Shown: piece by piece, positions 33,248 to 40,901 of the stretch | How the letters are laid out: every line of letters begins with the position of its first letter | Numbering within the stretch: position 1 is the first letter of the stretch | Assembly: GCA_001687465.1 (NCBI GenBank) | Contig: LVLI01000231.1 | Span: 62,001 to 126,000, forward strand | Direction of reading: 5' to 3' | DNA: 64,000 bases | DNA from: Halocafeteria seosinensis | Taxonomy: Eukaryota | Translations under genes and position numbers: made by a program | The notes under the pieces: model-generated | Told to the model about the DNA's origin: nothing | Seen by the model: the letters and a program-made list of their open reading frames with translations, nothing else | Database searches by the model: none

Positions 33248-33611
33248 TGGACGCTTTTTTCTCCTTCGACACTTGCCCTCAATCACTACAAGCAACCCAC
33301 GAAGAAACGTGGGAAATGATAGGCAGCTGTAATTCGCTGAAAGAATATCAACCCAGCACGTACGGCGGATACATGCAATTCAGACTACTGCTCTCGAAGA
33401 CCCTTTTTGTTCTCTACGGTGCTCCCCTGTAGGTTGTCCCTTCAAAACCTCAGCAGTGTGCGAAAAGTTTGTTTTATAGGTGAAAAGATTGTCGTGTTAC
33501 TATATGGGGTACCTTTGGAGGCAATATGGGTTTGTTAATTGATTATGATTATGCTTCGGCTAGATAGTGGTAGAGTTCTTGTTGTTAGTGTCCGACGGTT
33601 TCAATTGTACT

Positions 33612-36600
33612 ATGAGCGGCGGAACGAATGTTGTCCCTCTGACTCATGTTGTACACTCAGTCACAGACAAGTGCTATGAGGAATTGGTGGTCCTACAAAG
33701 AGAAATAGCTGTCTTGCAGTATCAGAACCAAAGCGAACAACAAGATGCAAGTGGGAATGGTGATACAGAACAGAGGTCAAAGCGAGAAACAGTAGCTCTC
33801 ACCAAACAGAAACTTCTCCAATGCTTGAAACAAACGAAGTTGAGGTTGCTGAAGATATCTGCGTTACTACATTGGTGGAGTCAAAACGGGGAATCGGTTG
33901 ACGCATTACTTCCTCGACTACATCGTCGAAAGGACACTTCAGTCAGGATATACCACACTCGGAAGGCTCTTCGAACACAGCTAAGAAGATTTCCGGAGCA
34001 TAGGCCCGTCAATAGTTCGTTTGCCAACGTGCTGAACGAACGTCGGCTGGCCACATATCTTCCAGAGGTGTACCAAGGAGCTCATGCGCTCTCATTAGAA
34101 CGTTTCCCGTTTGTACCCCGGTCTGTGGCCAACCCAGTGGCAAGAATTCAGCAGCATCTATTGGGCTCCGCAGAAGACGAAGAGACGACACGAACATGGG
34201 TCGATACCCCTCTTTCACAGCCTGAAACCACTCATCAATTGACGACACAACTTTCAAGGTGGATGCTTTTTTGTGAACAACCGCTGCAGAACTGGGCGAG
34301 GTACGATTTGTCGGAAGTTGGGAGAGTATCGGTGGAGGTTCCAGATCGGCTTCGAGTGTCGCTCTTACCCTCGTTCGATCCGGTGAACCCTACACGTTCA
34401 CCTTTTTGGAGGATATGTGAGGTTTCCTCAATTTCTGATGAAACTGAGTCAATATTATCGTTTACTCCCGATGAATTAAACCTCCTTCACCTTAGATTAC
34501 AGCAGCTTCTAGACGAAGAGTATGTCAAGCATTCTCAGGCGTCATCTTCACATACCCGCTGGAACTCCCTCCGGATTCTCGCCTATGGCATAGCGAAAAT
34601 GTGCATGCAAATACTCTTTGATAGATTTATTCTTCAAGCGTCCGTCGTCGCCCAAATAAGCTCTACTCACGTTTCTACACAGGTGAAACAATTTGAGTTT
34701 TCTGACCGCATACTCTCCCAACTCAGGCGACATGGTGTTATCGATAGCGACTTCATATCCCAATTTGTGCTAAATGGAGGTAAAATATACGTCCATCAAT
34801 GGCAGGACTGTCGTGCTGCATTGATCACCCTGGCGTTTAGCCCAAACCAGGATTTGGATGGGAAACATCCTGAGGGCGGATCCGGGAGTCGACAGACACT
34901 GCCGCCTCCGTTCTCGCGTCTTGACTCAATGTATCGAGGTAATGCAGTACATAAGGATCCAGCATCTAAGGAGCAGCAGAAGTTCCAGGAATCGTGTCTT
35001 CGTGGGTCGCTGGCTGGTGAGTTTTACGAATCGACTGTTTCCGAAGCCTCCCAGACTGGGAGCTCCTTCTCCAGCTTATTTAAGCCTCTGGCAATGGAGC
35101 ATTCCATGACTGAAATCAAACTTGATGGATCTAATCCCATCTCCTCTACACCTTTTTCCGAATCAATGCATGCGTTGGTCTACTGTGGTACAGAGGCGCG
35201 TAACCTTGACAAGTTCCCGCAGGTGGTGATCGATGTTTTCCCTTACAGGTGTGACAACGGAGTTGATATTATCAGAGGTACGTTGAGCCGAAAATAGAAA
35301 GATAATGATTGTGAATGCCAAGGTCGAATTTGTAAACACGAGAGTTTTGATATGTCAGGTATCGATAGCCTTGTGGGAAAAATGATGCGCATCCGTAGGG
35401 AAAAGTTCCTTAGACTCTTTCGAGTAATGAAGGGATTTTCATCCGATGCCTTGGAATTTGACTACGTTTTGAATGAAATACCGTCCTCATCTGTGACAGC
35501 TCGTTTTGACAACGAGTTCGTGCAGTCTTTTCCAGAGATTGGTATTCGACTTGACGCTGAAGTGGACTTCCGAACACTAGATATTGTAAACACCGTAGAA
35601 GAGTCACTTCAGTCGCGTAAACAGTCATTCCACAGCCTTTTAGCAGAACGGAAGAGGCAATATGCCTGTTCTTTATCTGGGGCGCTCTCTGATCTCCATG
35701 GCCAACTCTTGTCTCATACAGGCGCTCAAACGTACGCAAAGGGGAATGGAGCATCGGCTTATTTGGGGCGCCACAGTGCTAATTTATCGGGGCATAAAAA
35801 GAGACGTAGAGAATGGGAACATGATTTAGAGCGAATCGTGGGAAGTCAAATTACAGCGGAAGCGATGAGGAACAAGTTCTCGATCGTATCGTCGGCGTTG
35901 TATGGTCTGGATTCCGCTCACTCAGAAGCCGACTTTATTGCCTCGATCATAGGGGCCTGGATAGGGATATCCTTCAGCAGTTCTGACCTGAAGAATATCT
36001 TTAGTTACGGACATATTTGGAGCAATTTCGACGAGCATGCGACTGTATTGCACTTCTCAACGAGGTTCACAAGACTTCTTTCTATATTCGATGTTATATC
36101 GAATTGTTTAGCTGTGGACTCCATGATGTCGTCTTTGCAAAGAGAAGTCAACGACTACACCGTTCGAATTCGGAAACGGAGGCAATTGTACGACTATAAA
36201 GACCTACATTATAAGAATCGGCACGCATTGTCCACCATAAGGTCTGCCGTAGGCGTTGACTTGCAATCAGTTTTCACCTACCGAAGAGAGCAGACACCCG
36301 AAGGGGTTCCCTGCGAACATGCTCACGTCACATGTCTCTCAGCGTGTCGTGCTATGACCCACGCTGACGACGTGTCTGCACAACAGGAAATGAAGCTACT
36401 ATCATATGTTAGCACTGCTGCTGAAATTAGAGATGCCCCGGATAAAATAATTTGGTTTGAACCTAAAGAAATGGTTCGCCTTACGATGAAGCTTTATCGC
36501 CGTTATGAAGAGTTAAAAGATCGAGAGGATTTAATATCGCGGTTCATGAATCATGCGAAAAGTGTCAAGTATTGCTTTGATTTGGCTCTACAACATTCTT

Positions 36601-38084
36601 CGCATCCGGAGGCTTCCACGGGTGTTGTAATACCTGTCGAATCGGTTTCTTCGTTGTCCATCCACTCCAATTTGAAGATTCTACATCCACGGCTCTTGGA
36701 ATGTGTGCTGTTTGCGGCAGCCCAGATGGGGGTTGCTCATGTTTGCTTCGTCGAGAAATGCCCATCTGAAGGATCGGGAGTGGATAACAGTGATTCTGTT
36801 GATTGGATAACTACGTATCATAATACAGATTGCGTACAATATCTGGTCGAAAGGTTCGCTCATGACGCGCAAAAACTACTTGGTAGCATTTGTGTTTGGA
36901 TCTCTGGAAACGACACGCGACAAGTTTCATCCGTAGCCAAGTCGAACTCAGAACTTGGTCAGTGTGCCACGGCGTTTCGACGCGCTAGCAGAGTGGATAC
37001 AGAAAACAGACAGCGAATTGTGGCATGGGCGTGTGTGGATAAACAGCTGAGGCATCAGAAAATGGTACAGTACTACCGCCAATGTTTCGCCATGGCAGGC
37101 GCCAACCCAGAGAAGGTAAGGCTCGAAACTCCTCCGAATGAAGTTTGGTTTGAGAGGGACATGTCGGATGGGAAACCACAGTTACGTGATTTTGAGGAGC
37201 TCAATCTCTCTGACTGGTTTATAAAACAAGACAAGATAGCAGCGTTTCTATTTGTGGATGTTGAGGCACAAGCTATTGTCCCACCGTCACGAAATGCTTG
37301 GACCGACCCGAATATTGTTGGGGTCCATTTCCGCCTACCGAAGTTCAAAGGGGTAAAACATCGACGAAGTGGAGCTTTTTGTGATAAAGAAACAGATTTA
37401 TGGAAAAACTTTCAAGCAGTAACACTGTCTCTGTTTCCACCATCACCAGACTCTTTAGTTGAGCTGGGAGAAGTCGATGTGCCGTTGGGTAACCGCCATC
37501 CATGGATTGACCGGCGCTTAACAGCATTCGCACCTATATCTAAGTATCTTAAATGCTGGAATGTTCATTCGAAGACGCACCATGATTGCAAAATTAAGCT
37601 GGACTTTAACGGCTCTCTCTTGCTTAAGGAGTTACAAGAAGTCTACCCCGACTTTGCGCAACTCGTGGGATCGATTGAATTAGAGGAGGAAGGTACTCGA
37701 TATGTACTGCGCAGCAAAGTGGATAGCATCGATATGCACTTTTCATCCCTGGCATATGGAGCAGAAGATTCTGGCAGCAGTTACTGGATCGACACGATGA
37801 TCAGGGCTCTGGCCGCTCTGCTAATCAGTCGTTCGTTGTCACGCCATAACTCAGGGGCACCCATCCGATTAAACGCCACCAAAGACCATCCGCCTTTCTC
37901 CGCTCTCTATACCAACGCTAATACTTCTGATAGGAACAAGACTAGGGTATTTAAACTGATGCTTAAGCGGGTACCACAGCCGTGTTTTACACTCAGCTGG
38001 GCTGTTCTGAAGCAGCTATCGACAGCGGCAATACAGCAAGGGAGAAGGTCTCTTACGCCGTTCTACGATTTTATTGCATCCTAA
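33612..38084 (+). CDS. MED14: Mediator subunit 14-like (conserved N-terminus, divergent remainder)
   Basis: VVPLTHVVHSVTDKCYEELVVL..KQKLLQCLKQTKLRLLKISALLHWW matches the Med14 N-terminal pattern. The two ORFs join via a GTACGT..TCAG intron near 35278-35359. Confidence 0.65.
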
Positions 38085-38094
38085 TCAATCGAGA

Positions 38095-40259
38095 CTAATT
38101 GAATTTGATGAAAGCGCGAACAGTTACTTCCGGTGTGTACCGATAAAGGGCACCAAGTTCGCGAGTAACGATTTCCTGCCCGGCATTTGTTAACTGCGGA
38201 GCAACTAGCGGCGATAAATTGCGCAATTCTAAGAAAAATGGCAAGATCCGAGCAATCGACAGCTTCGATCGACTTTCTCCGTTTTCACCATCCTCTTCTG
38301 CAAATCGACAGTAGCGATGGTGATCTAGTTTTGGTCTCACCTGATCAAGAGGAACCCATGAATGCGTTTCTGGACATAGTAGCTCTGAGGGTTGGTATTC
38401 CCCTTTATATCGCATCTTCTGGCAGCTATGGATATAATAGCCCATGCAATAGTAATGTAGATGTGGCCGAAGTGTTGCTGCTTGCTGAACCCATTGTATT
38501 TCACGCAAAGCACTGTATTTTCCAAGCTCTAGCCAGTAATAGTCTGGGTCGTAGAACACATAGACACTCGAGAGACAGGAGGGCAAGATATCCACAACTG
38601 CGACCGCTACAAGCACTCCATCATAGTAATACTTTTGGTGGAAAGTTCCCATCCCTATTTGAAGGTTGTTTTCTACCGATTGCTTGTCTACTGACACCGC
38701 GTTCGTGTTGGAAGTGAATCCGGACGGACACTCTATGTTCGCCGGTGCCTTGAGATCTTTTCTTCGCTCTAGCGCAATCCTCACTCGTTCCTGCCTGCTC
38801 TTTAGCAAACGCTCCAGCTTCCCAGTTTGTTGATCCAGTTTGGCGTAGAATTCGGAAGCCGAAATATCCTCTTCACATTCCGGTGGCATCTCTCCGAAAA
38901 CCTCCACAAGAACAGCATGGACAGTTTCAACGTTCTCTTTTGCCAGTTCATCTAGCACTGCACCTACTGTCTGTAGTTCCCCATCCAACATTAACGCACA
39001 GAAGCGGATAGCACTCCGCGGGACGCCTAGTTGCAGAAACTTGGATTCCAAGACTTCTAGAATGGAAGTATTCACTCCTTCCTCACGGGAATAACCAAAT
39101 GGCAGCTCCGGCAATTCCTCATTAAATGGCTCGTTAATTAATGGGGATTCGACCAAGAAGCGCTTGTAACCCTTTGCTGAGACCTCGTCAGGCCCTTCTT
39201 TGTGGATTTCCATTTGATACTTCCGGAACAGCTGGTATGACTCTTCTTCGTACTGCGCTTTCACCATTTCCACTCTTAAGCTGTGCTGGCTATTACTACC
39301 TGACTCTGTTGTGAGCGATTCTGGGCCACTAGAGTGTTGAAACATGCAGTCCAGGCTCAAATTCAGCTCAATTGTAACGAACCCTTTTCCAGAGGACTGT
39401 ATTGTATGTACTTTGTCTTTGTTGGACATGTGCTCAACTCTCTTTTTCATCACTGTAGCAAGGGTGGTGGCAATATCGTCAGAGGCACTAACGTTTTCGG
39501 CACTACTTCGTTTCCGAAGCACTGCGTGGGTCACCAAAGCGACATTACATGATACCCTACAGCGTGCTTCCGCAGTGGAATCATTGAGGTTGCCTTTTCC
39601 CATAGGTTTCACTTGTATCTTATCCCGAGGTAAAGATTCAGGATCGCTGTTCAAAAACTCGTCGATGGCGGCTTGATGGGCAGTCTCACACAATTCAGCT
39701 TGTAGAGCTTTAAAGGTGTTGGGATACGTCTTCTGTTTCTTGCTATTCTTGCTTTCGGAAGAATCTGCATGTCCCGTCGATGTTTTTTCAGCAGCAGATT
39801 CTCTCCCTGGCGATGGTCTTAGGCCCTGAAGATGGCGATTAACCCTTTTCACAACCCGATTTTGCTGTTTTGAAGCTTGAAACTGTGACACGTCCAATCG
39901 TCTGCACCCAAAGAACCAGAGGCATATTTCAGTCCACGCTGTCGGGGATGAACTTCTCGATCCGGTACGTACATGGTGTAGTTGGGACAACAACTCTTTG
40001 AGTTTATTGGGTAGTACAGGATCTTTCCGGATCGACGCCATCCTCGAAACATCATATCTTGGTAGTCCACACATCTCATTCGGCTGCTCCGGCAGTAAAA
40101 TCTGCTTGCCACATGAACATCATCAAATCACTACTGAGGAGAACAAACACCGTGTGAGACAAGAAGTACATACTTGGGAGCAGTGTCGCCATCAGCTTTA
40201 CAGTATCCGCAAGAACTCCATTGCTCTCCAAATGGCTCCAAGATCGTAAGATTCTGCAT
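38095..40259 (-). CDS. ATE1: Arginyl-tRNA--protein transferase 1 with internal insertions
   Basis: SSCGYCK, YQDMMFRGWRRSG, SCCPNYTIRLD, LFRKYQMEIH, YKRFLVESPL, GTFHQKY..LVAVAVVDILPSCLSSVYVFYDPDY, MGYYIHSCQKMRYKGEYQPSELLCP; two introns. Confidence 0.95.
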
Positions 40260-40646
40260 TCTTGCTGCTTTACCACAAACGAAAACACTACAGCCCAACA
40301 AACAAGGATTTATTAATAGTGACTTTGACAATCATATAGGGGGCGATGTAGCTCCAAAACTGGCCCAAAATTCGACGTCAATGAAAAGTGAATCAATTGA
40401 TTGCACGGTCCTCTCCATCTGGTCAAAGTCATGCTCAGCCTTTGCAGTCAGTTCATGATGATTATGCATGTCACAGAGCAAATTTGAACACTTGTCGTGG
40501 CAACAACGACAACCCTCATTGAGTATTCTGTTTGGAAGAGACGTCGAAAGGAGAAAACGTAAGCAAGCGAACACATAGATTGCGTGCGTACGTCGCGCTT
40601 CATTACACTCATTCTCCAGCCGACGCAGCGTGATAACAGAGCTAAA

Positions 40647-40901
40647 ATGGCCTCGGTCGGGAAGAAAGTGGCCGATGGACTGCATAAAGTAACAGTTTCA
40701 GCGCTTATGCTTGCCACGTTAGGCGGAATCGGAGCTGTAGGGTATGGGTTATACTCACTCTACGTAGTACGGCCACGCGTTCAAGGCTTCGAAAACTATA
40801 CGCAATGGCTGGAAACGAAGAAGAAAGAAAATGAATCAGTACCCAGTAATAATAGCTCCATTGCCACTGAAGGACAAGAGAGCGCCCAAGAGAATCGTTA
40901 A
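40647..40901 (+). CDS. COX14-like cytochrome c oxidase assembly factor
   Basis: 84 aa, single TM; MASVGKKVADGLHKVTVSALMLATLGG resembles the COX14 N-terminus. Confidence 0.6.
   Translation: MASVGKKVADGLHKVTVSALMLATLGGIGAVGYGLYSLYVVRPRVQGFENYTQWLETKKKENESVPSNNSSIATEGQESAQENR

Follow-up and report, generated by a model that had tools for sequence, protein, structure and literature searches.

An ArgRS N-terminal (Add1)-like domain within the ATE1 arginyltransferase of Halocafeteria seosinensis and of plants, algae and amoebozoans

Arginyltransferase ATE1 is defined by two Pfam domains (PF04376 and PF04377) and a CxxC...CC motif, and the solved structures that we found, from human (8tzv) and two yeasts (K. 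lactis 7wfx, S. cerevisiae 8e3s), all come from a lineage without the domain described here. ATE1 has to select Arg-tRNA-Arg and to compete with translation for it. In yeast, the enzyme contacts tRNA on its acceptor and T arms, and these arms alone suffice for the selection of tRNA-Arg (PMC10115844). The loop between helix C and strand 6 is absent in yeast and unstructured in human and mouse ATE1 (residues 105–268 in human); in human ATE1 a basic helix of this loop raises the affinity for the acceptor and T arms four-fold (PMC11283454), and the mammalian disordered region at this site has been shown to add tRNA affinity (PMC11370617, PMC11283454). The insert of plant and slime-mould ATE1 has likewise been called disordered, from an alignment (PMC11370617). 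The other system of relevance is arginyl-tRNA synthetase (ArgRS), with its N-terminal Add1 domain (PF03485; 2zuf, 1iq0, 3gdz, 4q2t). In the E. coli enzyme, A20 of the D-loop is locked by F36, Q40, A78 and N84 and stacked on F82 (PMC8975779).

The window, meaning the whole stretch of 64,000 nucleotides that was analysed, encodes an ATE1 in which the helix C–strand 6 site, unlike in human and yeast, carries a predicted folded Add1-like domain. The domain is defined at family level, the window copy being an atypical member. A search of the open literature turned up no account of an ArgRS-like domain in ATE1, and the domain is not named in passages of PMC6594445, PMC13592012 and PMC11668491. Since some ATE1s, including one from Rubroshorea (P0264), pass the PF03485 cut-off, the architecture likely exists somewhere as an automatic label.

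The ATE1 gene and the relationship of its insert to ArgRS

Splice sites and translation define a single minus-strand gene of three exons at 38,095–40,259 (Table 1). Its translation is identical to a transcript-derived protein of 673 aa (P0002), which indicates that the gene is transcribed and its frame intact. A supplement of PMC8975779 lists the record prefix of P0002 under the bicosoecid stramenopile Halocafeteria seosinensis; the top-scoring named relative is Cafeteria. The product is an ATE1 arginyltransferase by both Pfam domains (ATE_N, residues 15–87, 69.6 bits; ATE_C, 147.3 bits; cut-offs 27 and 25), by the CxxC...CC zinc motif, which is present in its sequence, and by its predicted GNAT fold. 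The full AlphaFold model aligns with human ATE1 8tzv at Z 39.8 and rmsd 2.2 over 336 residues (VIA-align).

Table 1. Features of the ATE1 gene, in window positions; residues are numbered in the ATE1 protein
Feature	Position	Strand	Remarks
ATE1 exon 1	40174..40259	-	start codon; CxxC of zinc site; translation identical to P0002
ATE1 intron 1	40102..40173	-	72 nt, GTATGT...GCAG
ATE1 exon 2	39973..40101	-	ATE_N, CC of zinc site; Pfam ATE_N E 1.4e-11
ATE1 intron 2	39902..39972	-	71 nt, GTACGT...GCAG
ATE1 exon 3	38095..39901	-	helix C, both inserts, GNAT core, C-terminus, stop
Linker 1, residues 98-130	39727..39825	-	predicted flexible; pLDDT 40-55 over residues 101-130
ArgRS N-terminal (Add1)-like domain, residues 131-253	39358..39726	-	predicted helix-strand-strand-helix-helix-strand-strand
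S189-C190-N191	39544..39552	-	aligns with ArgRS GDY-x-x-N motif; Asn kept, Gly-Asp and Gln not
S242...F246-V247-T248	39373..39393	-	aligns with E. coli ArgRS A78...F82-I83-N84 (A20 pocket); aromatic kept, Asn replaced by Thr
Linker 2, residues 254-279	39280..39357	-	partly predicted flexible; pLDDT <50 at 263-272
Second insert in ATE_C, residues 326-489	38650..39141	-	predicted helical (helices 352-453)
ATE_C second part, residues 481-581, GNAT core	38374..38676	-	Pfam E 4e-43

Within a 674-codon minus-strand open frame, the insert lies between ATE_N and ATE_C, where it follows helix C and precedes the GNAT strand at 280. The preliminary description, made from the letters alone, had placed an ArgRS-N-like segment between the two ATE domains at 39,360–39,715; all the peptides it quoted fall in one minus-strand frame of exon 3, and its range is almost that of the domain in Table 1. 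In the full-length AlphaFold model (50-row alignment), residues 131–260 form a block with pLDDT mostly 84–97, with dips at two loops, flanked on both sides by low-confidence linkers. Folded alone (27 rows), the domain reaches pLDDT 88.7 and pTM 0.82, with the element order given in the table.

Single-sequence searches returned little. The window segment alone scores 14.5 bits against Pfam Arg_tRNA_synt_N (PF03485; E 0.057), under the cut-off of 21.5 and about equal to a PIN_8 match to the same segment, and PF03485 is not among the domains in a Pfam scan of full-length P0002. The insert gave no match by phmmer in the PDB and just ATE-type leads below 0.9 in the ESM Atlas, and a profile of the full-length protein recovered six ATE1 sequences and one stathmin from the PDB, with no ArgRS. 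PF03485 is weakly present in the insert region of 12 of 30 ATE1 homologs, always under the cut-off. Because the window copy is itself under that cut-off, we class the domain as a homolog and not as a Pfam member.

Family-level evidence comes from a profile (A2) built from 27 ATE1 inserts, its seed rows having been picked by a motif that covers the position equivalent to N84. Against the PDB, four ArgRS chains rank first (E 0.007–0.009). Among 301 genomes from the phylum of E. coli, A2 has a match at E<=0.05 in 182, mostly one per genome and with E as low as 6e-10. All of the top 30 loci are argS N-termini, and every one of them is accompanied by a match to the catalytic core and by a HIGH-like motif. 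The remaining 119 genomes have no match, and argS was missed in two enterobacterial genomes. In 1.84 billion proteins, A2 has 247 matches at E<=0.001, with E as low as 7e-9 for an argS N-terminus (P0180). The best 150 of these gave 138 new ids, of which 136 were scanned with Pfam, two long repeat proteins being left out; 34 exceed 50 bits on PF03485 without an ATE domain (8 of them with a catalytic domain), six are ATE1 proteins above the PF03485 cut-off, and two are unrelated repeat proteins. In profile–profile comparison, 133 ATE1 inserts score 89% (34 columns) against independently chosen E. coli-type ArgRS and 99.2% (96 columns) against the 30 argS loci, the latter figure being biased because A2 had chosen those loci; a reversed control gives 0.7% and 30 of 30 column shuffles stay below 0.4%. 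Three motifs, G-x-L-P, Y-x-x-N-x-A and G-aromatic-x-N-F, are common to ArgRS Add1 and the ATE1-insert family.

The predicted model of the domain has the Add1 fold, with the same order of elements. When it was compared with 48,161 chains by VIA-align, the top seven were all ArgRS (Z 10.5, 9.2, 9.2, 9.0, 8.8, 7.3 and 6.9), the best, from P. horikoshii, at rmsd 2.1 over 89 aligned residues; the first unrelated row follows at Z 6.6. With the full-length model, five ArgRS rows start at residues 130–137 and end at 255–264. Foldseek with the domain found nothing at E<=0.001, Klebsiella ArgRS 3gdz ranking first (E 0.32, probability 0.87), and with the full model no ArgRS was among the matches listed.

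It is the profile and fold evidence, and not single-sequence search, that puts homology clearly beyond chance, and on these predicted structures and sequence profiles we regard the ATE1 insert as almost certainly homologous to the ArgRS N-terminal domain. Convergence on a common small alpha/beta fold is extremely improbable: many unrelated alpha/beta folds do reach Z 5–6.6 and the Foldseek E is not significant, yet the profiles single out argS N-termini over nearly the whole domain, and the shared motifs stand in the same order in ATE1 inserts and ArgRS. The Add1 likeness proposed in the preliminary description is thus borne out, both by the profiles and by the predicted fold, the absence of either similarity being what it had named as contrary evidence. 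Its suggested Pfam scan succeeds for the six other ATE1s and falls short for the window segment, and its AlphaFold and Foldseek check yields a confident model with ArgRS at rank 1, though at an E that lacks significance. In contrast to ArgRS, the domain sits inside a GNAT enzyme that has no HIGH/KMSKS catalytic or DALR domain.

Distribution and origin

In a set of 190 ATE1 proteins and fragments, 133 score 15 bits or more on A2, and a further two lie at 5–15 bits. Named bearers are land plants, Chlorokybus, Chondrus, Choristocarpus, Tribonema, Chrysoparadoxa, Saprolegnia, Cafeteria, Nonionella, Stenamoeba, three dictyostelids and, weakly, Rhizomastix. These cover land plants, algae of the green, red and brown lineages, amoebozoans, an oomycete and a foraminiferan. 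A further search added 106 proteins, mostly from plants, all with the domain. With the window's clade left out of the profile, the window ATE1 still scores 23.3 bits, and the domain was not detected in any of 20 named animal (9) and fungal (11) ATE1s nor in that of the malawimonad Gefionella, all at or below 1.2 bits. In this sample the domain is undetectable in animal and fungal ATE1, in line with the preliminary description, in which it was foreign to the animal and yeast architecture. The clade of P0034 and its relatives has only a short loop in place of the domain; P0070 and P0089 are fragments that start past the insert site and are uninformative on presence. Named Discoba, alveolates, haptophytes, diatoms and opisthokont protists are not represented in the sample. 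P0034 is a eukaryotic-type ATE1 tagged "archaeon" by its source; it clusters with short-loop ATE1s and likely comes from a mislabelled assembly. The Rubroshorea protein has two tandem copies of the Add1-like block, either a tandem duplication or a gene-model artefact.

Plant and slime-mould inserts score as Add1-like (in Arabidopsis ATE1, residues 143–274, 98 bits), whereas the nine animal loops do not; the published description of the former as disordered (PMC11370617) would thereby be corrected.

The preliminary description had called the module borrowed and had proposed a survey of stramenopiles. Stramenopiles do bear it; it was not, however, acquired by this organism or by stramenopiles alone, occurring also in plants, red algae, a rhizarian and amoebozoans, and is most likely an old eukaryotic feature. 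A recent horizontal insertion in H. seosinensis was rejected on this wide distribution and on the composition of the insert, which is near that of the rest of the gene (GC 0.455 vs 0.471, GC3 0.447 vs 0.475). An archaeal donor was considered, as P. horikoshii ranks first by structure and in the PDB search with A2, but is not favoured by sequence: bacterial HGDY-type domains score higher on A2 (up to 41 bits in the genomes and 52 bits in the 1.84 billion proteins, vs 19.7 for P. horikoshii).

In a domain tree (79 rows, 123 columns, quick method) whose rows include no archaeal or eukaryotic ArgRS, a branch (SH-aLRT 87, unstarred) sets 36 ATE1 domains to one side. Such a tree is compatible with a single origin of the ATE1 domain, which it neither establishes nor rejects. 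In a tree of the ATE1 core (FastTree, 161 rows, 267 columns), the window protein and its nearest relative, P0003, fall beside opisthokonts and not with Cafeteria, at 0.83; we deemed this placement unreliable and used the tree for presence and absence only. On the accepted eukaryote tree, presence in Amoebozoa as well as in Archaeplastida and SAR suggests that the domain arose close to the last eukaryotic common ancestor and was lost later in some lineages. The sequence distribution thus suggests an old eukaryotic acquisition that was lost later in opisthokonts.

The A20 pocket and a probable second tRNA-binding site

The pocket that holds A20 in ArgRS is partly retained across the family. The Asn equivalent to N84 occurs in 125 of the 127 rows that have a residue at this position (weighted 0.97), and is the most conserved column of the domain, above every core hydrophobic column. 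These counts are plant-heavy and some bias is left by the Asn position in the seed motif; in the first batch, gathered by whole-protein search, 60 of 62 have Asn. His, Phe or Tyr occupies the F82 column in 124 of 127, and a small residue (Ala, Ser, Thr or Gly) the A78 column in 116 of 127. In Arabidopsis ATE1 the pocket Asn is N267 and the aromatic is H265. The equivalents of F36, Q40 and Gly-Asp are mostly lost across ATE1 domains, Gly-Asp surviving in a few such as Stenamoeba P0051, and many inserts have a basic stretch after the first strand (alignment columns 42–51).

Within this family the window copy is among the two least canonical of 127. It has the aromatic F246 and the small S242 of the pocket and lacks the (F/H)GDY(Q) motif save for the downstream Asn; the only Thr in the Asn column are its own Thr248 and that of P0003. 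A sequencing error was rejected, as the transcript-derived P0002 is identical and P0003 likewise has Thr. Cytosolic tRNA-Arg of H. seosinensis is listed with A20 (PMC8975779 supplement), so that Thr248 is not accounted for by a change in the tRNA; the 64-kb window itself holds no tRNA gene. Judged from sequence, the base check in this lineage is likely relaxed.

We propose that the Add1-like domain, carried on two predicted flexible linkers inside the GNAT fold, would grip the D/T-loop elbow of Arg-tRNA-Arg while the ATE1 core holds the acceptor end. Family-wide, the aromatic-x-Asn strand may read A20 as in ArgRS and provide an identity check or affinity for tRNA-Arg; in the Thr248 lineage the pocket would be relaxed, with the domain adding elbow affinity and reading the base more weakly. 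A single early acquisition from an ArgRS gene would have persisted in Archaeplastida, SAR and Amoebozoa, and opisthokonts would have lost it or exchanged it for a disordered basic loop. The insertion site and the tRNA contacts of the yeast and human enzymes would place a tethered Add1 domain within reach of the elbow, and an Asn column conserved in plants, SAR and Amoebozoa alike is what a specific side-chain contact would lead one to expect. That the domain is a second tRNA-binding site, with or without base reading, we infer with good confidence; the full model, with an elbow grip, A20 reading in most bearers and early acquisition, is somewhat probable from sequence, predicted structure and analogy with ArgRS.

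Against A20 reading, animals retain A20 (PMC8975779) yet the sampled animal ATE1s are without the domain, and F36 and Q40, out of five pocket positions in E. coli, are not conserved in most ATE1 domains. Since yeast ATE1 is selective via the acceptor and T arms alone (PMC10115844), the domain is in principle dispensable. An alternative is that a true Add1 homolog binds the elbow or backbone for affinity alone, its Asn being structural or a backbone contact. The tolerance of Thr in the window lineage, the loss of Gly-Asp as well as F36 and Q40 in most rows, and the basic stretch behind the first strand would all fit, as would the findings that the N-domain contacts of yeast ArgRS are unnecessary for specificity (PMC8975779) and that the human loop at this site works via basic residues (PMC11283454). 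An Asn conserved beyond any core hydrophobic column in plants, SAR and Amoebozoa argues the other way, and we consider affinity without base reading unlikely.

It is distinctly less likely that tRNA binding is gone and that the domain was repurposed for protein contacts, be it dimerisation, docking to ArgRS or the multi-synthetase complex, or binding of substrates or ubiquitin-system partners. Mammalian ATE1 does interact with ArgRS independently of tRNA (PMC9456563), human ATE1 dimerises (PMC11283454), and some ATE1s carry UBA or CUE domains; but conservation is highest on the surface with which ArgRS touches tRNA, and contact with tRNA is known for the site of insertion (PMC11283454). A decaying, functionless relic in the window lineage could explain the Thr in P0002 and P0003, the mere 23 bits against a profile built without these two, and the complete loss in several lineages. 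Such decay is highly unlikely, given an intact and transcribed frame, a confident predicted fold, and a domain that shares 31% identity and the same Thr with P0003.

Should the domain act as it does in ArgRS, the plant enzymes of the N-degron and oxygen-sensing pathway would recognise tRNA in a manner unlike that of yeast and human, and a non-ribosomal aminoacyl transferase would be seen to have reused the identity-reading domain of a synthetase. We put forward more tentatively, as possible, that ancestral eukaryotic ATE1 was a fusion with the A20-reading domain of ArgRS, by which plant, algal and amoebozoan ATE1 would still proofread tRNA-Arg. The structurally studied yeast and human enzymes would then be derived, having lost the module, and the disordered tRNA-binding loop of human ATE1 would have taken its place.

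The second insert and neighbouring frames

The second large helical insertion ahead of GTFHQKY, also noted in the preliminary description, is confirmed as 164 residues between two parts of ATE_C, predicted helical over the range in Table 1; human and yeast ATE1 do not have it. Its pLDDT is low to moderate (10-residue blocks mostly 53–69). P0003 has a visibly similar insert of 162 residues at the same place, and the Cafeteria-like clade has unrelated-looking inserts there. Three low-confidence predicted helices at 352–392 look UBA-like by eye. The second insert has no match in Pfam, the PDB or the Atlas, scores 0.2% against UBA/CUE by hhalign, and had no match confined to it listed in the VIA search of the full model. 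A UBA/CUE identity thus found no support in Pfam, PDB, Atlas or hhalign, a weak test in which the hhalign comparison used very small alignments. Elsewhere among ATE1s, P0006 has a true UBA at the same ATE_C site, and P0203 and P0208 have an N-terminal CUE; ubiquitin-binding domains recur on protist and algal ATE1s.

On the plus strand, two long in-frame ORFs (33,564–35,294 and 35,298–38,084) are separated by a single stop. The start of the upstream one is Med14-like, slightly under the Pfam cut-off (E 1.7e-5, 24.7 bits), and the downstream one ends 10 bases from the ATE1 stop, so that the convergent 3' ends must overlap. A small plus-strand ORF at 40,563–40,901, divergent from the ATE1 start, has one hydrophobic stretch and may resemble a small mitochondrial assembly factor.
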